8,756 bases of DNA. It comes from Escherichia coli. GTDB taxonomy: Bacteria > Pseudomonadota > Gammaproteobacteria > Enterobacterales > Enterobacteriaceae. The position numbers and the translations under genes are program-made. The stretch lies in NCBI RefSeq assembly GCF_003334385.1, contig NZ_QOWN01000071.1. One strand, given 5' to 3'. Positions 100-8,756 of the stretch are shown here, one piece after another (the first letter of the stretch is position 1; every line of letters starts with the position of its first letter). A model generated the notes under the pieces. It saw only the letters and a list, made by a program, of their open reading frames with translations, was not told the origin of the DNA and did not search any database.

Positions 100-876
100 T
101 CATTTCCGGATTTTCGCCAGTGCATCCGCCATGCTGCGGATTTCATCCCGTGCCTCCAGAACAACCTCCCGCAGAATATCCCGGTCAAACCAGCGACGGG
201 ACGGTTCATCCGGTATACGCAGCACATCACAGACCAGACCACTGGCCAGGATATGCTCAATACAATCGCTGACCAGGTACATTTCCACCGACGAAAAACG
301 TGCTCCCCGGTTCACGATGGCATCGAGCACCACGGGCAGATTTTCGTCATCTTCATCAAGCCAGCAGGGGTAATCGCTTTCCTTCACAACCAGACGAAAG
401 CGGCGCGTCTGGCGGGTCAGCAACGTCTGACCGGTGGTGGTCAACGCCGCACGGATACGCCGCGCATCTTCTGCCACCCGGCAACTGACACTGCATACTG
501 CATCGCGCACCGCATCAAAAACCGCCCTGATTTCTTCCTCCGTCAGCCATTCACCGGCATACGGGAAAGACACCTGCGTTCCGTCTGCCGGAAGTACCGG
601 CAGCGACTGCCACTGACTGCCGGACAGTACAACTTCCGCCCCGGTTCCGGTCAGTTTCTGAATGGCGGAGGCCAGGTGCGGCGGCAGCACGCCATCGTGG
701 CGGTTAACGAGTAACGTCGCCAGCCGGGGCGCATCCAGCAGAACATAAATGCTGATCCAGCCCGGATACTTCGGGTTACGCTGGTCAACATCCGTCTCTT
801 CCGGCCAGCCCTGCGCCAGCAGCAGGTTGCGGGCGTGACGACAAATCAGTGCGTTCAGCGTTGTGTTTTCGTTCAT
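100..876 (-). CDS. Hypothetical protein (258 aa), last gene of the methyltransferase-led operon
   Basis: Long ORF on the minus strand. The reverse complement of 877-895 gives ttcaGGGAGAacgattaat immediately before the ATG, a Shine-Dalgarno-like GGGAGA. It follows the three upstream minus-strand genes with short gaps. I do not recognise a family; function unknown. Confidence 0.7.
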
Positions 877-921
877 GATTAATCGTTCTCCCTGAATCGC
901 CGCCCGGAGGCGGCGATAACA

Positions 922-1356
922 TCAGTCGTTTTCGTGTCTGTTGTTTTTCAGCAGGGTGCGGGCCTGATTAATCACCGCCTGACGGCGGGTGACGCATTCC
1001 GGGACGGCGAGGCCATAATCCCGGGCGGCCCATTCACGTTTCCACAATGCCTGTTCAGCGGTCTGAATCAGGGACGTCAGCAGTTCAGCAGGGACGGTCA
1101 CCTGGCGGTTTTCTCTCACGTTATTGATGATCTCCATCGCCACGCCGGAAGAAATACCGGATTCAGTCCGCTGGTCTTCCGGGATGTCCTCCAGGCGCGC
1201 CAGGACGGTTCTGATTTCATGATCGGACAGAGAAATATCCATTCCGTCAGCGAGGGCCTGAATCTCTTCCGGGGACCAGATAACCAGCATCAGCGGCGTG
1301 TCTCCCGGATACTTTGCTGCCAGCGCCCGGCATAGCGTTTCGCATGTTCCGTACAT
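922..1356 (-). CDS. Hypothetical protein (144 aa), third gene of the methyltransferase-led operon
   Basis: ORF with a strong RBS: the reverse complement upstream of the ATG reads gattgAGAAGGAGAcgaga-ATG. It sits 13 bp downstream of the preceding minus-strand gene. No family recognised from the sequence alone. Confidence 0.7.
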   Translation of the reverse strand: MYGTCETLCRALAAKYPGDTPLMLVIWSPEEIQALADGMDISLSDHEIRTVLARLEDIPEDQRTESGISSGVAMEIINNVRENRQVTVPAELLTSLIQTAEQALWKREWAARDYGLAVPECVTRRQAVINQARTLLKNNRHEND

Positions 1357-1369
1357 TCTCGTCTCCTTC

Positions 1370-1591
1370 TCAATCTTTGAAGCAGGAATCCAGTTCCAGA
1401 ATTTCGGTATACGCCTCCATGAACAGGCGATTGGCGCGATACAGCGTCTGGCGTGTCAGGCGTTCAACAAGCACATCGGAATCAAAGCGACAGCGATGCT
1501 CCATATCGTTCAGCCTGGCCCGAAGGTCACACATGGTGTTGGCCACCTCCGCCACGTCGGCGCGAAGTTTTTCGTGTCCGGCATAGTTCAT
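1370..1591 (-). CDS. Hypothetical small protein (73 aa), translationally coupled to the methyltransferase gene
   Basis: Its ATG directly abuts the methyltransferase stop (minus strand reads ...TAA-ATG). GGAGG lies 8 nt upstream of the ATG, inside the methyltransferase 3' end. Small size makes the call less certain. Confidence 0.6.
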   Translation of the reverse strand: MNYAGHEKLRADVAEVANTMCDLRARLNDMEHRCRFDSDVLVERLTRQTLYRANRLFMEAYTEILELDSCFKD

Positions 1592-2275
1592 TTACGCAGC
1601 CTCCGGTTCAAACCAGTTATCATTCGCGGCCCCCTGCTGCATGGCCCGTTGCACGGCGGCCAGTCGTTGCTGTCCGGCACGGTGATACTGTTCAAGCAGC
1701 TCGATACCGATATACCGGCGTCCGGACTGAAGGGCGGCCACGCAGGTTGAGCCGCTGCCTGCAAACGGGTCCAGCACAATCGCGTTCGGATGTGTGAAGC
1801 TCTCAATCAGCGGTTGCAGGCTGGTAACGGGCTTTTCCGTCGGGTGATGACGATTGCCTGAATATTTCCAGCCCAGCACATCCGGCAGAGGGTTACGGGG
1901 CCGGGCCGGACTGCCCTTTGCCAGGATGTAAGCGCATTCGTGGCGGTACGCGACATACGCAGATTTGGATGTGTAGTTTTTGGTGAACACGAGGTGCCCT
2001 GCCACGCTGAATCCGGCGCGTTTCCAGGCCGCCATAAAGCGGTCAATACGGTGCCAGCCGTAGAAGCTGACCATCAGCGCGTCTTTTTTGAGTACGCGGT
2101 ACATTTCATTACAGGCCGGTTGCAGCCATTCATCGGTTTTATCGCCAGCGATGGTGCGCCCGAAACGGTCACGAAAACCGACGAGGTACGGCGGGTCAGT
2201 CAGTATGAAATCAATGGCGTTATCAGGAATACGGGCCATAACATCGATGCAGTTACCGAGGACAAAACGGGACAT
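1592..2275 (-). CDS. Orphan DNA methyltransferase, N6-adenine/N4-cytosine beta-class (227 aa)
   Basis: The translation contains DPPY near the N-terminus (ILTDPPYLVGF) followed later by an FxGxG AdoMet-binding motif (VLDPFAGSGST) and HPTEKP. This motif order is typical of beta-class amino-methyltransferases. RBS AGGAG lies upstream of the ATG (reverse complement of 2276-2290 is agaAGGAGcgttgtt). No restriction endonuclease partner is adjacent. Confidence 0.85.
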   Translation of the reverse strand: MSRFVLGNCIDVMARIPDNAIDFILTDPPYLVGFRDRFGRTIAGDKTDEWLQPACNEMYRVLKKDALMVSFYGWHRIDRFMAAWKRAGFSVAGHLVFTKNYTSKSAYVAYRHECAYILAKGSPARPRNPLPDVLGWKYSGNRHHPTEKPVTSLQPLIESFTHPNAIVLDPFAGSGSTCVAALQSGRRYIGIELLEQYHRAGQQRLAAVQRAMQQGAANDNWFEPEAA

Positions 2276-2620
2276 AACAACGCTCCTTCTCTTACAGAGG
2301 ACACCAGGAGGGCACCCCTGTGGTGCCCGTTCCCCGCTGCCTGTGGGCTGTTCACCGCGTCCGGTAACGGGTCAGGCCGACCGTGGAATACCGCAGCAGC
2401 CGTCGTCTTTCTGACGGCAAGGCTATGCCGCGAAAGCGGCTTGAAGGGCGTTCATCAGAAAAGGGCTCCTGGCTGGCGTACACTGGCACCGACGCCAGCC
2501 AGGAGCGGTAAAAGCGCCCGTCCCGTGCCTGATCGGACGCGGGACACTGACCACAGGCAGCGTTCCTGCCGCGCCGCGTCAGCCGGCGCAGTAAAAAGAG
2601 GAGCCCGGCGACATCCTTTG
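2276..2620 (-). promoter_or_regulatory. GC-rich, hairpin-dense non-coding leader upstream of the methyltransferase operon (possible promoter or single-strand promoter-like element)
   Basis: No credible ORF with an RBS. Inverted repeats read directly: perfect 15-bp stem gctcctggctggcgt (2465-2479) with acgccagccaggagc (2492-2506) and a 12-nt loop; GGGCACC (2310-2316) with GGTGCCC (2322-2328); GCCGTC (2399-2404) with GACGGC (2413-2418); gtcccg (2520-2525) with cgggac (2540-2545). The region lies between the parR terminator and the methyltransferase start. Confidence 0.45.
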
Positions 2621-2654
2621 TCGGAAAAGAAAAAAGGACGCAACAGCGTCCTTT
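2621..2654 (-). terminator. Rho-independent terminator downstream of the parR-like gene
   Basis: Stem AGGACGC (2635-2641) and GCGTCCT (2646-2652) with loop AACA. On the minus strand the hairpin is followed by a U-run (plus-strand A-run ggaaaagaaaaaa at 2621-2634). It sits 16 bp after the parR-like stop. Confidence 0.65.
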
Positions 2655-2669
2655 AACAGAGTTCAGTTC

Positions 2670-3098
2670 TTATTCATCATCCGGAAACAAGTTCTTAATG
2701 TTGTTTCTTGTTTCCAGGAGATTCTGATCGACTGGAGCAGATATTTCTTGCGTAGCAGAATCAACCGCAGGCAGGATCGTTTTTGCATTATTACCGGCAG
2801 ACTGCAGAAATGCCTCCAGCAAACGAACAACTTCACCATTTTCCTGTTGTGGTAGCGTACTACTGATAATTCGTTGAATATCCCGCATAGACGTGCTGTC
2901 TGTCAGGAATTCAGCTATCAGAAACGGCAATCGTTCATCCTGTTTCATCAATGCAGCACCACACAACATCATGGCCCGCATTGCCCGACCACGTTCTTTC
3001 TGAGGCAATTTTTCAAGAAACCTGTCAGCCACCCGATCAGCTGCATTTCGTTCCGGATAAATATAAAAAGAGCACTTACGATTATCAGCCATACTCAT
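2670..3098 (-). CDS. parR: ParR/StbB-like centromere-binding partition protein (142 aa)
   Basis: Small gene immediately downstream of the parM-like gene and overlapping it by 4 nt (ATGA). By recollection it resembles plasmid R1 ParR in its central part (...LPQKERGRAMRAMMLCGAALMKQDERLPFLIAEFLT...). An alternative start two codons in (3092) has better SD spacing. Confidence 0.65.
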   Translation of the reverse strand: MSMADNRKCSFYIYPERNAADRVADRFLEKLPQKERGRAMRAMMLCGAALMKQDERLPFLIAEFLTDSTSMRDIQRIISSTLPQQENGEVVRLLEAFLQSAGNNAKTILPAVDSATQEISAPVDQNLLETRNNIKNLFPDDE

Positions 3099-4075
3099 CC
3101 CTTCATTGCCATCATTCCCAACACCAGATCGAACTGAGGATTGTCACTGACAAAGAAACGGTTATCACCCACTCCTGTCGCTTTTTTTACTGCCCCAGCC
3201 ACAAGGCTGGCACCACCGCCAACAACCATAACATGAGTAAAACCAGCAAAGCGTCCTACTGAATCCGCCACACGATGCTGCAGTTTTTTTTCCCGGTCAC
3301 GTAATACTGTCAGGATCTGCTCACGCTGTTCTGCATTCGGGATATAACGAGTCAGGAATTCATTGTCATCCCGGCCCTGGATTAGACGATCTGCAAAATA
3401 AGAACTGGTTCGTGTACTCACATTCACATCCATCGCATGCTTAACTGCTTCAGTAATGATGGAAACGCCTGTCTTGGGGTCACAATAAGTTTTTGTGAAA
3501 CCGGACATTTTGCTGCGGACATGTGCAATATCAAGGGTCGTTCCACCGATATCAACGATCAACAGCGACTCCAGATCATTCAGATCTTTCAGCACGTCAA
3601 AACCGGCAGGCACGGACTCAGGCAAGACACTGACTTTACGAATGGTAAAGTTTTCACGCCCCTGAACTGTTACAGCTCGTCTGACATTATTTTTCTTACG
3701 TTCGATATTAGCCAGATTTGGCTGATCGTTCTCATCCAGATACTCACCTAAAGGTAAAGTCACAACAATATCAACAGGTTGCGGAGCAATACCTGACTGC
3801 ATCAACGCATGATGAATAGCAACCACATTAACGTCGCTGTACTGATAACGCGTTTCTGTGGTGCGCACTGCATCCGGACTCAATTGATCAAAGCTGTATT
3901 TCTCTCCATCAATCTCATAGTTTGCGGAAGCGGGTATAGTGGCATCAGTCAGTCCCTGCAGCGTCATAGACCATTCCGGTTTAAAACTATTCGGGCTAAT
4001 TAACGTTTTCACTGCACCGTCTTCAACCCAAGCCAGTTTGATGTTGGTAGAACCGTCATCTACAAAGATACGCAT
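3095..4075 (-). CDS. parM: ParM/StbA-like actin-family plasmid segregation ATPase
   Basis: The N-terminus MRIFVDDGSTNIKL, the phosphate-2-like LIVDIGGTTLDIAHV, and HVMVVGGGASLV match recalled ParM/StbA (R1/R100) motifs. I place the start at the ATG at 4075-4073, preceded by GTGAGGTTCTGG. The ORF track extends to a GTG at 4087 that overlaps that SD. Confidence 0.85.
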   Translation of the reverse strand: MRIFVDDGSTNIKLAWVEDGAVKTLISPNSFKPEWSMTLQGLTDATIPASANYEIDGEKYSFDQLSPDAVRTTETRYQYSDVNVVAIHHALMQSGIAPQPVDIVVTLPLGEYLDENDQPNLANIERKKNNVRRAVTVQGRENFTIRKVSVLPESVPAGFDVLKDLNDLESLLIVDIGGTTLDIAHVRSKMSGFTKTYCDPKTGVSIITEAVKHAMDVNVSTRTSSYFADRLIQGRDDNEFLTRYIPNAEQREQILTVLRDREKKLQHRVADSVGRFAGFTHVMVVGGGASLVAGAVKKATGVGDNRFFVSDNPQFDLVLGMMAMKG

Positions 4076-4087
4076 CCAGAACCTCAC

Positions 4088-4300
4088 AGAATAAAATGGA
4101 TTTTTTTAGAAAAATATGGTGTCGAAAAAGATTATCACCTAGAAACACGCATCAGTAAAGACCTGATATCGGCCACAAACAGAAAGATAAAGAAAAATAA
4201 AGACAAAAACCGACTCAAATAGCACACCAGGGAACAAACAAGAACAATAAAAGACAAATGCAGTTAAAATTCAGAAAAAAACTGAACAGGTGAACGGAGA
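4088..4300 (-). promoter_or_regulatory. AT-rich upstream region of the parMR-like operon (putative promoter and parC-like centromere)
   Basis: About 210 bp of A-rich non-coding sequence directly upstream of parM, where parC sits in known parMRC loci. Loose recurrences of aaagac/aaagat motifs are visible, but I could not delineate clear iterons by eye. Confidence 0.3.
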
Positions 4301-4664
4301 AGGGGGCTCATCCAGCACATGCTGTATTTGGGTTCAGTTTGGAATTCGGAAAATAAACCACGTTAAGACTATTTTTTAGCCAAATGGCTTTCAGGAATCG
4401 CCAGAATGGCGGGACAACAGTGGTTTTGGTGTCCGAAATCGTACAATTCTGTACATCTACGCAAGGAAATGTACGGAAGTAAGCCAAATGGTTATCGGAC
4501 GGTAGGAACATTTCGTACAGCCTTTACGTTCAGTGAGTGAGCTGGTCTGGATGTAACCACTCGTTCAACTCAATTCTCTTAGCGTGGGAAAATTTCCTTT
4601 CTCCAAGCGGCTCCCAAACCGTAATTCCCGGCAAGCCCGGTAAGCTGGGCAGCAAGCTAGGCAC

Positions 4665-4964
4665 TCAAAGAATGAACCGGGGATTCTGACGCTGACCTAC
4701 AACCGCCAGGATATTGACACGACGGGCCTTATCATTCACTTCATAAAGTACATGCTGCCCAAGTAAGCTAATACGACGAACCCCTTCGCCATAGCGTTCA
4801 TCAGTTTCATACAGCCGAGGGTAATCAGCCAGGCGATCGGTTGCAGTGATCAGACGCTCTGTCACGTTCCTTGCATCCCAAAGAGATGCATTCTCAGCCA
4901 GATATTCAAACAGCGCAGTTATATCTTCAATTGCACCTGGTCGCCATTCTATTTCATAACTCAT
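4665..4964 (-). CDS. RelE/ParE-superfamily toxin of a type II toxin-antitoxin module (99 aa)
   Basis: About 100-aa protein whose start overlaps the upstream small gene by 11 nt. The sequence pattern (YEIEWRPGAIEDI..., ...RRVNILAVVGQRQN) is consistent with RelE/ParE-fold toxins as I recall them. Confidence 0.7.
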   Translation of the reverse strand: MSYEIEWRPGAIEDITALFEYLAENASLWDARNVTERLITATDRLADYPRLYETDERYGEGVRRISLLGQHVLYEVNDKARRVNILAVVGQRQNPRFIL

Positions 4965-5217
4965 TGCGCAGTTCCTGATAACGTCCCTGTAGTTGCTGGC
5001 GCAGTTGCGCGGAACTCATTCCCGGCCGCTTATCGGCGCGAGCAGCGGCAACTTTCGCTCGTATCTGTTCGTCGTATTCTGCCCGTGCCAGTTCTTCATT
5101 AGCAAGGCGTTGCAATAGTGCAGACTTGTCTGTACTGCCTTCTGGAAAAATACGAGGCAGGCTTTCGGCCAGCTCGCGCAGGAAATTGGCGTTTTCGTAA
5201 TGTGTGGTGCTATTCAT
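4954..5217 (-). CDS. Putative antitoxin of the RelE/ParE-type module (87 aa from the second ATG)
   Basis: Small ORF upstream of and overlapping the toxin gene (antitoxin-first order). I prefer the second ATG at 5217 because the minus strand reads ATGAAGGGGGAGTCAACT-ATG, which places a GGGGGAG SD about 7 nt before it. The ORF track starts at 5235. Antitoxin family uncertain. Confidence 0.6.
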   Translation of the reverse strand: MNSTTHYENANFLRELAESLPRIFPEGSTDKSALLQRLANEELARAEYDEQIRAKVAAARADKRPGMSSAQLRQQLQGRYQELRNEL

Positions 5218-5291
5218 AGTTGACTCCCCCTTCATTTAATAAAGAGCAATTACAGGTTTTTTGATGTCGTACGCATGGGTATAACGAGTCA

Positions 5292-5305
5292 GAATATCGA
5301 TATTC
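5292..5305. promoter_or_regulatory. Perfect 14-bp palindrome GAATATCGATATTC upstream of the toxin-antitoxin operon (candidate operator)
   Basis: Read directly; self-complementary. It lies about 75-88 bp upstream of the preferred antitoxin ATG. Type II antitoxins commonly autoregulate through palindromic operators. Confidence 0.3.
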
Positions 5306-5619
5306 ACTCCGATGATATTGTTTCACAGGCAGGCGATAACCGGAAAATAATGCTCATTTACCTGGCAATCTGCGTGTTGTCAGGTTTTATACAGAGTATA
5401 TAACCTTTCAGACACAGCCACCAACATATGCCGCGTCAGCGGCATGGAAGGCGGTACTCTGTGGTTACATGCGGCACAAGTGTAAAACCGCCGAAGCCCG
5501 GCGTAAGCCGGTACTGATTGACAGGTTTCACCTTACCCACCCCCGGCCCTGCCAGACAGTGGGGGCTTAAAGGGGTAGTGTGACATCCTGACAGCAACTG
5601 AAAGCAAAATGTAAACACA

Positions 5620-5812
5620 ATATTAATTTTTGTAAAAAAGCAATAACTATACAAACATAACTAACTGATATTACTATTAAATATTTAACAGGCGTACAAA
5701 TTTAGTTCAAATTATCATTGCAAAATATAGTTAATTACAGCAAGTAACTAGTGTTGGCCAACATACTATTCAGATGTCATAAGCATTAATTTCCCTTAAA
5801 AAAGGAGTCCTT
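5620..5812 (+). promoter_or_regulatory. AT-rich promoter and leader region of the microcin B17 operon
   Basis: Strongly AT-rich tract directly upstream of mcbA. Candidate -10-like hexamers are TATAGT (5726-5731) and TCATAA (5777-5782), the latter with TTGGCC (5754-5759) 17 bp upstream. mcbA RBS AGGAG is at 5803-5807, 5 nt before the ATG. Exact promoter not mapped. Confidence 0.4.
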
Positions 5813-6010
5813 ATGGAATTAAAAGCGAGTGAATTTGGTGTAGTTTTGTCCGTTGATGCTCTTAAATTATCACGCCAGTCTCCATTAGGTGTTGGCATTG
5901 GTGGTGGTGGCGGCGGTAGCTGCGGTGGTCAAGGTGGCGGTTGTGGTGGTTGCAGCAACGGTTGTAGTGGTGGAAACGGTGGCAGCGGCGGAAGTGGTTC
6001 ACATATCTGA
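5813..6010 (+). CDS. mcbA: Microcin B17 precursor peptide McbA, variant with a shortened poly-Gly linker (65 aa)
   Basis: The translation MELKASEFGVVLSVDALKLSRQSPLG-VGIGGGGGG-SCGGQGGGCGGCSNGCSGGNGGSGGSGSHI matches the microcin B17 leader and core as I recall them, including the Gly-Ser-Cys and Gly-Cys-Ser heterocyclisation sites. Only 6 Gly codons (5900-5917) follow VGI. Confidence 0.95.
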   Translation: MELKASEFGVVLSVDALKLSRQSPLGVGIGGGGGGSCGGQGGGCGGCSNGCSGGNGGSGGSGSHI

Positions 6011-6027
6011 TACGTTGAATTAACCGT

Positions 6028-6050
6028 TCAGGGAGCATGGTGCTCCCTGA
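6028..6050 (+). promoter_or_regulatory. Perfect stem-loop between mcbA and mcbB (10-bp stem, 3-nt loop)
   Basis: tCAGGGAGCA (6028-6037), loop TGG, TGCTCCCTGa (6041-6050), verified base by base. It starts 18 nt after the mcbA stop and encloses the first in-frame ATG of the mcbB ORF (6037). It is not followed by a U-tract. Confidence 0.5.
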
Positions 6051-6924
6051 TATTAAAAAAGGAAAAGATATGATCAATATTCTGCCATTTGAGATAATTT
6101 CCAGAAATACAAAGACCCTGCTTATTACCTACATTTCTTCAGTAGACATTACACATGAGGGAATGAAAAAAGTACTCGAAAGCCTACGATCCAAACAGGG
6201 TATTATTTCTGAATACCTCCTTGATAAACTACTGGACGAATCGCTTATTGATAAAGACAAGGGCAAAGAGTTTCTTATTACCACAGGCGTGATAAATAAA
6301 ACGAAAACATCACCTCTCTGGGTAAACTCAGTCATAATAAGCGATGTTCCACATCTTTTCAGTAATGCCCGGGAACAATGGAAATCTGATGGTGTTTTTG
6401 TTTCTCATATCATTGATATAAAAGATAATAATATTAATGTGAGCGATTCAACACTAATCTGGTTACATCTCGAAAACTATCATTCAGACATTGTAAAAAG
6501 AATCTATTCAAAATTTGAAAGTAACCCTGGTGTTGCCTTCATCCAAAGCTACTACCTAAAGGAGTCATTCAGGATAGATGGAGTATATTCACCTGATCTT
6601 GGTACTCCCTGCCATTTTTGTCATATAGAGAGATGGCTGAGCAGGGAAGAAAAAAGCTTCAGACGTAACGAAATGTCCTGGGCAAATTTACTTCAGTTAC
6701 TGAAAAAATACTAAATGACACTACCAGCATTGGCTTTAGGCGAGTCAGAAAGAGGATTCAGCTATCATTTAATAAAACGGCGACTTCAGGAGTTGACAGG
6801 TACTTCACTGGTTAAAAGTCATGTCGATAGCTTTATGTCATCTGTTAGCGCTGATTTAATCACCTGTATTTTATGTAAAGAGCCGGTAATTCACTGGCAG
6901 GCTTGCAGCTGTCTGGAGAGATAA
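6037..6924 (+). pseudogene. mcbB: mcbB (microcin B17 synthetase zinc-binding scaffold subunit) interrupted by an in-frame TAA at 6712-6714
   Basis: The 225-aa ORF 6037-6714 and the 69-aa ORF 6715-6924 are in the same frame, separated only by TAA. Together they give 225+1+69 = 295 codons, which is the McbB length I recall. CHFCH lies in the N-terminal part and CILC...CSC in the C-terminal part. An RBS-supported alternative start is the ATG at 6070 (AGGA at 6060-6063). Confidence 0.8.
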
Positions 6925-6925
6925 C

Positions 6926-7744
6926 ATGTCAAAACACGAACTCTCTTTAGTGGAAGTAACGCATTACACAGATCCTGAAGTTCTGGCCATTGTTAAAGAT
7001 TTTCATGTCAGAGGTAACTTTGCTTCCCTCCCCGAATTTGCTGAACGAACTTTCGTGTCCGCGGTACCTCTTGCCCATCTGGAGAAATTTGAAAATAAAG
7101 AAGTTCTCTTCAGGCCAGGTTTCAGCTCCGTAATAAACATATCCTCATCACATAATTTTAGTCGTGAAAGGCTCCCATCAGGAATAAACTTTTGCGACAA
7201 AAATAAACTTTCCATTCGTACTATTGAAAAGTTATTAGTCAATGCATTCAGCTCACCTGATCCTAGCTCTGTAAGAAGACCTTATCCTTCTGGGGGGGCA
7301 TTGTGCCCGATTGAAGTTTTTTTATGCAGATTATCTGAAAATACAGAAAACTGGCAGTCAGGAACTAATGTTTATCACTACCTGCCGCTAAGTCAGGCAC
7401 TGGAACCTGTTGCTACATGTAATACTCAGTCACTCTACCGAAGCCTGTCCGGTGGGGATTCGGAACGTCTTGGTAAACCCCATTTTGCTCTCGTCTATTG
7501 CATTATTTTTGAAAAAGCTTTGTTCAAATATCGCTACAGAGGATACCGGATGGCCTTAATGGAAACAGGTTCGATGTATCAGAACGCAGTATTGGTTGCA
7601 GATCAAATAGGACTGAAAAACCGGGTATGGGCGGGATATACCGATTCATACGTAGCAAAAACAATGAATCTGGATCAGAGGACTGTAGCGCCACTGATCG
7701 TTCAGTTTTTTGGAGATGTAAACGATGATAAATGTCTACAGTAA
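6926..7744 (+). CDS. mcbC: McbC, FMN-dependent dehydrogenase of microcin B17 synthetase (272 aa)
   Basis: 272-aa ORF, matching the McbC length I recall. It starts 1 nt after the mcbB stop, with GGAGAG 7 nt upstream, and contains a nitroreductase-like RPYPSGGALCPIE region. The gene order follows the known mcb operon. Confidence 0.93.
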   Translation: MSKHELSLVEVTHYTDPEVLAIVKDFHVRGNFASLPEFAERTFVSAVPLAHLEKFENKEVLFRPGFSSVINISSSHNFSRERLPSGINFCDKNKLSIRTIEKLLVNAFSSPDPSSVRRPYPSGGALCPIEVFLCRLSENTENWQSGTNVYHYLPLSQALEPVATCNTQSLYRSLSGGDSERLGKPHFALVYCIIFEKALFKYRYRGYRMALMETGSMYQNAVLVADQIGLKNRVWAGYTDSYVAKTMNLDQRTVAPLIVQFFGDVNDDKCLQ

Positions 7745-8618
7745 CCTTATGTCCGCATGGCCGGCCACAATGGCCATGAGTCCAAAACTGAACAGAAATA
7801 TGCCAACGTTTTCTCAGATATGGGACTATGAGCGTATTACACCAGCCAGCGCGGCCGGTGAAACTCTGAAGTCAATTCAGGGGGCAATAGGTGAATATTT
7901 TGAACGCCGTCATTTTTTTAATGAGATAGTCACCGGTGGTCAGAAAACATTATATGAGATGATGCCTCCATCTGCTGCAAAGGCTTTTACCGAAGCATTT
8001 TTTCAGATCTCATCACTGACCCGCGATGAAATCATAACCCATAAATTTAAAACGGTCAGAGCCTTTAATCTGTTTAGCCTTGAACAACAAGAAATACCTG
8101 CAGTCATAATTGCACTCGACAATATAACCGCTGCAGATGATCTGAAATTTTATCCTGACAGAGATACATGCGGATGTAGCTTTCATGGTAGTTTGAACGA
8201 TGCCATAGAAGGTTCCTTGTGTGAATTTATGGAGAGACAGTCCCTCCTTCTTTACTGGTTACAGGGAAAAGCCAATACTGAAATATCCAGTGAAATAGTA
8301 ACAGGCATAAATCATATTGATGAGATTTTACTGGCTCTCAGGTCAGAAGGAGATATCAGGATTTTCGATATCACCCTGCCCGGAGCTCCTGGACACGCAG
8401 TACTAACCCTGTATGGCACAAAAAACAAAATCAGTCGAATAAAATACAGTACCGGATTATCCTATGCTAATAGTCTGAAAAAAGCACTTTGTAAATCCGT
8501 AGTGGAATTGTGGCAATCGTATATATGCCTGCACAACTTTCTTATTGGCGGTTATACTGATGATGACATTATTGATAGTTACCAGCGTCACTTTATGTCA
8601 TGCAACAAGTACGGGTAA
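7725..8618 (+). pseudogene. mcbD: mcbD (YcaO-type cyclodehydratase of microcin B17 synthetase) truncated by an IS1-family insertion
   Basis: The ORF starts MINVYSNLMSAW... and overlaps the mcbC end by 20 nt. It runs 296 mcbD codons and then ends in G-stop, where the codons are supplied by the IS1 terminal repeat (GG-TAA-TG). McbD is about 396 aa by recollection, so roughly the C-terminal 100 residues are missing. Confidence 0.88.
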
Positions 8619-8636
8619 TGACTCCAACTTACTGAT
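8614..8636. repeat. IS1 terminal inverted repeat (23 bp)
   Basis: GGTAATGACTCCAACTTACTGAT matches the IS1 terminal inverted repeat consensus. It directly abuts mcbD coding sequence. Confidence 0.75.
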
Positions 8637-8756
8637 AGTGTTTTATGTTCAGATAATGCCCGATGACCTTGTCATGCAACTCCACCGATTTTGAGAACGA
8701 CAGTAACTTCCGTCCCAGCCTTGCCAGATGTTGTCTCAGATTCAGATTATGTCGCT
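8629..8756 (-). CDS. insB: IS1 transposase InsB, C-terminal fragment (5' end outside the window)
   Basis: The minus-strand translation ...[41 protein letters not shown]-stop matches the IS1 InsB C-terminus from memory. The stop TAA is the complement of 8629-8631. Confidence 0.75.

Follow-up and report, generated by a model that had tools for sequence, protein, structure and literature searches.

The 8,756-nt stretch of Escherichia coli DNA analyzed here (contig NZ_QOWN01000071.1, hereafter the window) very probably carries the M.EcoGIX operon, located at the distal end of the leading region in an F-like conjugative plasmid, which also encodes microcin B17; this assessment takes in the mechanism and the view of the companion genes that are developed below. 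The operon consists of four closely spaced genes, all on the minus strand, which run from an orphan DNA methylase through YubE and YubF/DUF1380 to YubG/YchA (Table 1). The cassette is already known, being among the commonest and best-catalogued blocks of F- and I-type plasmids.

Table 1. Features of the methylase operon and its upstream edge (positions are those of the window)
Feature	Coordinates	Strand	Description	Source
M.EcoGIX-type methylase gene	1592..2275	-	227 aa	ORF list
YubE (YfcA of R64, Hp9 of pESBL)	1370..1591	-	73 aa	ORF list
YubF/YcgB/YfcB (Hp10 of pESBL)	922..1356	-	144 aa, DUF1380 family	ORF list
YubG/YchA/YfdA (Hp11 of pESBL)	100..876	-	258 aa, without Pfam family	ORF list
Stem-loop between the DUF1380 and YubG genes	896..917	-	GC-rich, 9-bp stem, without T-run	sequence
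Imperfect hairpin, predicted class 3 ssDNA promoter homologue	2282..2604	+	~320 nt, transferred (template) strand	
Intrinsic terminator past parR/stbB	2633..2654	-	module's upstream edge	terminator scan

A first-pass annotation, made from the DNA letters alone, had described the methylase and three further genes as an operon on the basis of their layout, a TAA-ATG junction, and Shine-Dalgarno sites. All of these hold, and we add the strand, which that annotation did not give. The TAA stop of the methylase gene is followed immediately by the ATG of the 73-aa gene (TAAATG), and a Shine-Dalgarno sequence precedes each of the four starts: AAGGAG 8 nt 5' of the methylase ATG, GGAGG 9 nt 5' of that of the 73-aa gene, AAGGAG 7 nt 5' of that of the 144-aa gene, and GGGAG ∼12 nt 5' of that of the 258-aa gene. 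The upstream neighbors of the operon are parR and parM (2670-4087). Between these and the operon lies a terminator with a 9-bp stem followed by a T-run, and homology to the IncI1 plasmid pESBL starts just downstream of it, at ∼2630. In 8 other loci, a stem-loop occupies the position of the one between the DUF1380 and YubG genes, and its stem sequence differs. When compared with 12-13 orthologous loci, all four genes are under purifying selection (dN/dS < 1), with dN/dS values of ∼0.1 for the methylase, 0.09-0.30 (mostly 0.12-0.23) for YubE, 0.26-0.64 for the DUF1380 gene, and 0.19-0.49 for YubG. The low dN/dS values, taken together with the wide occurrence of the block in plasmids, indicate that the four open reading frames are real genes rather than chance ones.

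By sequence, the methylase is an orphan beta-class N6-adenine DNA methylase and an orthologue of M.EcoGIX, which is known as YfbB in R64 and YfeA in F. It is identical to M.EcoGIX of pESBL at 224 of 227 residues (99%); YfbB and YfeA are 94% and 91% identical to M.EcoGIX, respectively (PMC4288162). It matches NCBIfam NF010253 (PRK13699) with 490 bits against a cutoff of 244, as well as the Pfam N6_N4_Mtase family (PF01555, 1.7e-39). In its translation, motif IV (TDPPY, residues 26-30) lies ahead of motif I (DPFAGSGS, residues 169-176), as in beta-class enzymes, and Fomenkov et al. assigned the M.EcoGIX family to the beta class (PMC7736820). No restriction endonuclease was found beside the methylase with PADLOC, Pfam, and NCBIfam, its neighbors being parR/parM and the three small proteins. 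The earlier designation of this enzyme as an orphan beta-class methylase is therefore upheld by the absence of an adjacent restriction enzyme, the motif order, and the NF010253 score. A Type II restriction-modification system was also considered and was rejected, as there is no nuclease-like neighbor and the methylase is the only protein of the operon that PADLOC matches. The first-pass annotation had further held that orphan methylases in leading regions are anti-restriction factors, and for the 99%-identical M.EcoGIX, protection of the incoming plasmid from restriction has been demonstrated experimentally (PMC4288162, PMC7736820). This orthologue acts in the recipient, is specific for single strands, and forms m6A at SAY sites in a manner that depends on oriT orientation (PMC7736820); when it is knocked out, transfer into restricting recipients drops by as much as 1000-fold (PMC4288162).

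The region immediately upstream of the methylase gene, from 2282 to 2604, contains the inverted repeats I1, I2, and I4 and is ∼95% identical to the corresponding region of pESBL. Folded as DNA, it reaches -114.4 kcal/mol (z = -9.2). An alignment of 10 loci yields 86 pairs with 98.6% of cells paired, and compensatory changes occur at 14 pairs, versus 0-2 in slid controls. The template strand is the better folder in 10 of the 10 loci, with G-T pairs favoring it. A consensus scan for sigma-70 -35 and -10 hexamers within the hairpin found none, and reading by eye did no better. In pESBL, the transcription start in the class 3 ssDNA promoter was mapped by 5' RACE, and from this promoter the M.EcoGIX operon is induced in transconjugants for both pESBL and F (PMC12672017). 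We conclude from the shared sequence and fold that the hairpin is the homologue of the class 3 ssDNA promoter driving the M.EcoGIX operon, and it would presumably act as a promoter here as well. The idea that the four genes form one early-induced operon thus holds for pESBL and F (PMC12672017).

The three companion genes had been described in the first-pass annotation as not recognizable, which is nearly correct: each belongs to a named family, and for none is there a functional match. The 144-aa protein is a member of Pfam DUF1380 (PF07128, 1.1e-53), with residues 1-136 covering positions 1-137 of the 137-position model. The 73-aa protein matches phrog_4830 (1e-36), and proteins 99-100% identical to it carry the precomputed assignment to a recent Pfam family, PF27407 "YubE". 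The 258-aa protein shows full-length YubG/YchA homology (phrog_8919, 3.6e-139), is labeled "YubG family protein" by PGAP, and gave no match in a Pfam search; its predicted structure is a confident model without a known structural relative, and its best matches in AFDB50 are YchA, NgrC, and yubG, with TM up to 0.97. Searched against Pfam, NCBIfam, PHROGs, and PADLOC, the three companions returned family names with no function, and against PADLOC no match. Sequence searches of the PDB, with the companions singly and with profiles of YubG and DUF1380, gave nothing meaningful, the best match being a de novo designed helix (4e-4). None of the companions matches the known anti-restriction families (ArdA PF07275, ArdB/KlcA PF03230, and other DNA mimics), and their net charges of -3, -7, and -8 are only mildly acidic, unlike those of DNA-mimic anti-restriction proteins. 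DNA-binding, nucleotide-binding, and enzyme signatures were looked for in the models and profiles, and none was seen. Hence HMM and structure searches of the companions lead to uncharacterized families only. We found no functional literature on yfcA, yfcB, yfdA, yubE, yubF, yubG, ycgB, ychA, or DUF1380. The DUF1380 and YubG proteins had no match by tblastn in 50,697 phage records, so the PHROG memberships do not reflect a phage distribution. In a TnSeq study, all three genes were dispensable for maintenance of pESBL and for its transfer into a K-12 recipient (PMC4288162).

At least 4,996 PLSDB plasmids contain the block at ≥90% identity, and the operon occurs in ∼58% of complete E. coli genomes. 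Among 4383 methylase-carrying E. coli records, 4172 (95%) contain the whole operon. Of 21 species-representative loci, 20 keep the order methylase-YubE-DUF1380-YubG as far as their contigs reach, the exception being L035, in which the methylase is frameshifted and YubG is undetectable; the same order is also kept in metagenome homologues down to 36-41% identity. YubE directly follows the methylase gene (the frameshifted one in L035 included) in every examined locus that extends upstream, with its start abutting or overlapping the methylase stop in all loci, and in none of the examined loci was it seen apart from that gene. As to whether the companions always travel with the methylase, the conserved order says that they do within this block, but relatives of two of them are also found without it. 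YubG-like genes with 24-29% identity stand alone beside ArdA or ArdB, without a methylase, and DUF1380 paralogues follow KlcA and are also present elsewhere in leading regions; YfeC, from the KlcA/ArdB-YfeC operon, is one such paralogue, 31% identical to the 144-aa protein. At similar dS, dN is 3-4 times as high in the companions as in the methylase. Alleles are also shuffled: the methylase of pESBL is 99% identical to that of the window and its YubE is 77% identical, whereas in the R64-type plasmid pN11 the methylase is 94% and YubE 100% identical.

Because the window does not include oriT, its position in the leading region and the strand that is transferred are taken from synteny. The counterparts of the block in pESBL and a related F-type mcb plasmid are flanked by parMR or DUF1281 on one side and by klcA-ssb-psiB on the other, and all genes there point toward oriT, which suggests that the plus strand of the window would be the one entering the recipient in conjugation. 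The hairpin would then serve as a promoter that works only on single-stranded DNA, an activity demonstrated for the 95%-identical sequence of pESBL, and would give a brief burst of transcription of the four genes. The methylase would introduce m6A at SAY sites in the single strand as it comes in, and the duplex made later would be partly protected from the restriction enzymes of the recipient, both of which were shown for the 99%-identical orthologue. YubE, YubF/DUF1380, and YubG, presumably co-transcribed in this burst, are small proteins that are mildly acidic, evolve fast, and show no signature of an enzyme or of DNA binding. They could plausibly be separate early-establishment factors whose targets are host proteins, bound either to block a defense or to modulate a host process, a reading that we hold tentatively.

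An improbable alternative is that the operon encodes one enzyme system, in which the companions are subunits or cofactors of the methylase, for example, for ssDNA loading or for coupling to DNA polymerase I. The invariant gene order, the YubE junction, and the 95% of methylase-carrying E. coli records with the whole operon would all be expected of such a system. In the hands of Fomenkov et al., moreover, the methylase became inactive when purified, and they suspected that some factor was missing (PMC7736820); the published M.EcoGIX knockout, a gentamicin-cassette replacement, may have been polar on all three companions. However, M.EcoGIX and M.BceJIII, each cloned alone, methylate actively in vivo (PMC7736820), YubE and methylase alleles recombine freely, and the faster evolution of the companions does not fit well with a role as subunits. 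Because YubG-like and DUF1380 genes occur without a methylase and the genes after M.BceJIII are unrelated, the companions are probably not obligatory subunits but rather independent early-establishment proteins. YubE is the one companion that could be a partner of the methylase, since it always abuts the methylase gene. A further proposal, which we regard as very unlikely, is that at least one companion offsets a liability of the methylase itself, either Type IV (Mrr) attack on m6A DNA or a defect in replication or copy number. The constant pairing of YubE with the methylase gene agrees with this proposal, as does the efficient transfer of pESBL into an MG1655-derived recipient, which we take to be Mrr-positive from its K-12 MG1655 parentage. 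Plasmids carrying only M.EcoGIX, in contrast, are restricted 10 to 10,000-fold by EcoKMrr and have a depressed copy number (PMC7736820). Then again, methylation that is transient, partial, and limited to one strand may fail to trigger Mrr, plasmids with M.BceJIII do without these genes, and relatives of YubG and DUF1380 are found where there is no methylase.

A role for the companions in host physiology or in the processing of plasmid DNA (transcription, SOS, replication, or single- to double-strand conversion), rather than in immunity, seems somewhat unlikely yet carries more weight than the two preceding proposals. K-12 carries EcoKI, Mrr, and McrBC, and transfer into this defense-carrying host requires none of the three genes. 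HerB/YfjB, SSB, PsiB, and a DNA polymerase III theta homologue are leading-region proteins that are not anti-defense, and HerB/YfjB was found to act by reprogramming host transcription instead of blocking a defense (PMC13370423), which makes location alone weak evidence for an anti-defense function. On the other side, the models and profiles of the companions lack any signature for binding DNA or nucleotides or for catalysis, and an arms race would explain their rapid divergence, the existence of several paralogues, and the shuffling of their alleles better than a housekeeping interaction would. An anti-defense role for the companions is plausible and has already been proposed in general terms. 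The first-pass annotation presented them as candidates for new anti-defense functions; this claim to novelty falls away, since the block is well catalogued and the idea that unknown leading-region families are anti-defense genes was published in 2024 (PMC11541004), and no anti-defense activity could be computed for any of the three. That at least one of YubE, YubF/DUF1380, and YubG inhibits a host immune or DNA-surveillance factor through an undescribed fold and mechanism is, in our estimate, a doubtful but tangible prospect. One possible form of such inhibition would be directed at modification-dependent, Mrr-type restriction, which, if true, would make a promiscuous methylase safe to use.

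Whatever the companions do, the operon is among the first things that thousands of resistance and virulence plasmids express in a new host, and the three companions are among the eleven largest leading-region gene families; the methylase, YubE, YubF, and YubG occupy ranks 8, 11, 7, and 10 among leading-region-enriched families (Samuel et al. 2024). With the operon being so common, an inhibitor activity of a companion, if true, would shape the spread of plasmids across Enterobacterales. The present work files the locus correctly and describes its companions as real, conserved, and fast-evolving genes that are probably not obligatory parts of the methylase.

The closest described system is the M.EcoGIX operon of pESBL, in which M.EcoGIX, Hp9, Hp10, and Hp11/YchA follow one another with the same order and spacing as in the window and with protein identities to it of 99% for the methylase, 77% for YubE (another allele), 97% for DUF1380, and 92% for YubG. 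Ahead of the module, pESBL has DUF1281 and a small ORF, and the window has parM/parR; the backbone of the window, F-like and with the microcin B17 operon, also differs from that of pESBL. In pESBL and related F-type plasmids, KlcA/ArdB comes after the operon, and the gene order is the same in pESBL, the R64-type pN11, and the F-type mcb plasmid. The yfbB-yfcA-yfcB-yfdA operon of the R64/ColIb type and the yfeA-yubE-yubF-yubG operon of F match the window in all four families and in their order, and both lie in the leading region upstream of ArdB/KlcA, ssb, the ParB-like HerB, and psiB; they differ from the window in allelic and mosaic variation only. M.BceJIII of Burkholderia cenocepacia (pBCJ2315) is a more distant case, a 60% identical methylase with the same published single-strand SAY activity. 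Its gene likewise lies upstream of a ParB-like gene, on a conjugative MPF_F/MOBF plasmid, and the ORFs downstream of it (168, 55, and 62 aa) have no similarity to YubE, DUF1380, or YubG by BLASTP or with the YubG and DUF1380 profiles. The KlcA/ArdB-YfeC operon, which has a class 2 ssDNA promoter, and ArdA are known anti-restriction genes that share with the M.EcoGIX operon the leading region, the orientation, and the early induction.

The window is a fragment of an F-like conjugative plasmid, whose features are collected in the table. G+C content is 56-59% in the methylase operon and hairpin (100-2660) versus ~35-50% in the par, toxin-antitoxin, and mcb regions (2700-8756). No PLSDB plasmid matches the whole window in a single piece, and the best covers 75% of it in 4 pieces; the succession of parMR and the methylase operon with no intervening DUF1281 is therefore read as a mosaic variant. 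Related plasmids carry counterparts of the genes at 4665-5235, with the annotations RelE/ParE toxin and plasmid stabilization protein.

Features of the window (operon genes from the ORF list)
Feature	Position	Strand	Remark
YubG, 258 aa	100-876	-	
DUF1380 protein, 144 aa	922-1356	-	
YubE, 73 aa	1370-1591	-	
Methylase, 227 aa	1592-2275	-	
Hairpin, ~320 nt	2282-2604		between parR and methylase gene
Intrinsic terminator	2633-2654		between parR and methylase gene; terminator scan
parM/parR	2670-4087		
RelE/ParE-type toxin-antitoxin pair	4665-5235	-	
RelE/ParE-type toxin, 99 aa	4665-4964	-	overlaps antitoxin-like ORF
Antitoxin-like ORF, 93 aa	4954-5235	-	
Microcin B17 operon	5813-8756		mcbA onward
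mcbA	5813-6010		Gly/Ser/Cys-rich precursor
mcbB	6037-6714 and 6715-6924		two ORFs (split)
mcbC	6926-7744		
mcbD, start of gene	7725-8618		

By its matches to PF01555 (1.7e-39) and NF010253 (490 bits, cutoff 244), the 227-aa protein is a DNA methylase, and its motif order, TDPPY and then DPFAGSGS, is that of the beta class, as the first-pass annotation had proposed. Its other structural observations were also borne out: the methylase stop and the start of the 73-aa gene read TAAATG, a Shine-Dalgarno site precedes each of the four genes on inspection, and the ORF list and PADLOC gave no restriction enzyme nearby, which leaves the methylase an orphan. All four ORFs are real genes: comparison with 12-13 orthologous loci gave dN/dS values of ~0.1 (methylase), 0.09-0.30, mostly 0.12-0.23 (73-aa gene), 0.26-0.64 (144-aa gene), and 0.19-0.49 (258-aa gene). 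The methylase shares 224 of 227 residues with M.EcoGIX of pESBL, an IncI1 plasmid of E. coli O104:H4. M.EcoGIX methylates SAY adenines exclusively in single strands and is inactive on the plasmid inside the donor; without it, transfer into restricting recipients drops by up to 1000-fold, and inversion of oriT abolishes its protection (PMC4288162, PMC7736820). As a liability, Mrr restricts plasmids that express only the methylase by a factor of 10 to 10,000 (PMC7736820). The published knockout replaced M.EcoGIX with a gentamicin cassette (PMC4288162), which, by our reasoning and not that of its authors, may be polar on the three downstream genes.

Single-stranded DNA folding of the hairpin gives -114 kcal/mol (z = -9.2) for the plus strand and z = -6.6 for the minus strand. 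The region is ~95% identical to the sequence upstream of M.EcoGIX in pESBL, with the homology beginning exactly at the module edge. The pESBL hairpin is a "class 3" single-stranded-DNA promoter with a start site located by 5' RACE, and transconjugants strongly induce its operon within 15 minutes, as they do that of F (PMC12672017). Across ten loci, down to ~75% identity, the hairpin comprises 86 pairs with 98.6% of cells paired, and 14 pairs carry changes on both sides versus 0-2 with slid partners. In all ten loci the template strand, which would enter the recipient, gives the more stable fold; its average advantage over the coding strand is 5 kcal/mol and comes from G-T pairs. This bias would be expected if the structure acts in the transferred DNA rather than in mRNA. 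As oriT is absent from the window, we infer a leading-region position from pESBL and a related F-type mcb plasmid, where the genes after the block are klcA, a DUF1380 paralogue, ssb, the ParB-like HerB, and psiB, all directed toward oriT. A second group of methylase operons (comparison loci L021, L022, L024-L026, and L030; also L014), with methylases 83-86% identical, has in the 400 nt upstream a sequence unrelated to the class 3 hairpin that nonetheless folds into an extended hairpin with the outer stem CGCCGTGCCG...CGGCACGGCG (-72 to -83 kcal/mol per 400 nt) and may be a further ssDNA-promoter type.

The three companion genes travel mostly with the methylase. Among 21 species-representative loci found through DUF1380, 20 keep the order methylase-YubE-DUF1380-YubG as far as their contigs reach, and so do metagenome YubG homologues (36-41% identity), often with KlcA/ArdB next. 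In the exception, L035 from Enterobacter soli, YubE and DUF1380 are intact, KlcA comes immediately after them, and YubG is undetectable; in the ORF upstream of YubE (5192-5728), the methylase frame survives only for the C-terminal third of the protein (SLRPLIESLTRPGAIVLDPFAGSGS onward), so this gene is frameshifted or mis-assembled. Co-conservation is nevertheless incomplete: a divergent YubG clade (24-29% identity) stands alone beside ArdB or ArdA, with the methylase, YubE, and DUF1380 all absent; DUF1380 has several paralogues at other leading-region positions, one being YfeC after KlcA (31% identity); and on the Burkholderia plasmid pBCJ2315 a 60% identical methylase, presumably M.BceJIII, precedes small ORFs unrelated to the companions. 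In divergent-plasmid leading regions (L005 7127-7384, L009 6456-6713, L013 6509-6763), a DNA polymerase III theta homologue (HolE-like, PF06440) is encoded downstream, a few genes past the ArdA/ArdB genes that come after YubG.

The companions gave no informative match to function in Pfam, NCBIfam, PADLOC, or PDB sequences. They are mildly acidic (net charge -3, -7, and -8), their amino acids change at 3-4 times the methylase rate at similar dS, and their alleles are reshuffled relative to the methylase. YubG is a small family (182 representatives among 1.84 billion clusters), the located members all being Enterobacterales. TnSeq showed that none of the three is needed for maintenance or for transfer into K-12 (PMC4288162). 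On balance they are best read as separate early-establishment proteins acting through binding of other proteins, and not as obligatory methylase parts; YubE is a possible exception, since it was never seen apart from the methylase gene. They may act against defence systems, compensate for liabilities that the methylase brings, or tune host physiology in the manner of HerB (PMC13370423). The first-pass proposal of a new anti-defence cassette is reasonable, but it repeats a published general proposal (PMC11541004) and gains no specific support here.

A GC-rich stem-loop (896-917), ATCGCCGCC-TCCG-GGCGGCGAT, without a T-run, lies between the stop codon of the DUF1380 gene and the start of YubG. 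The equivalent position in 8 other loci also holds a stem-loop, with differing stem sequences, which suggests that the structure is conserved; a role as a signal for transcript processing, stability, or attenuation is possible. A 32-nt spacer of a type I-F CRISPR array on the chromosome of E. coli STEC299 (marmot, China) matches 32/32 to 1172-1203 in the DUF1380 gene (L039 702-733). A GC dinucleotide lies 5' of the protospacer in the array's transcribed orientation; the usual type I-F PAM is CC.

The first-pass description of the locus was accurate, but the operon is already known and extremely common, and nothing in the locus itself is new. The block occurs at ≥90% identity in at least 4,996 PLSDB plasmids. 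The methylase is found in 3,287 of 5,426 complete E. coli genomes and ≥80% of the four-gene block in 3,159; by record, 4,172 of the 4,383 carrying the methylase have the block (≥80%). Among leading-region-enriched gene families, DUF1380 ranks 7, the methylase 8, YchA 10, and YfcA 11 (Samuel et al. 2024). Identity and mode of expression appear settled as far as sequence allows, and the remaining interest is the function of three very abundant protein families. Currently named YubE (PF27407), DUF1380, and YubG, these correspond to YfcA, YfcB, and YfdA of R64 and to Hp9, Hp10, and Hp11/YchA of pESBL, which are 77%, 97%, and 92% identical to the window proteins.
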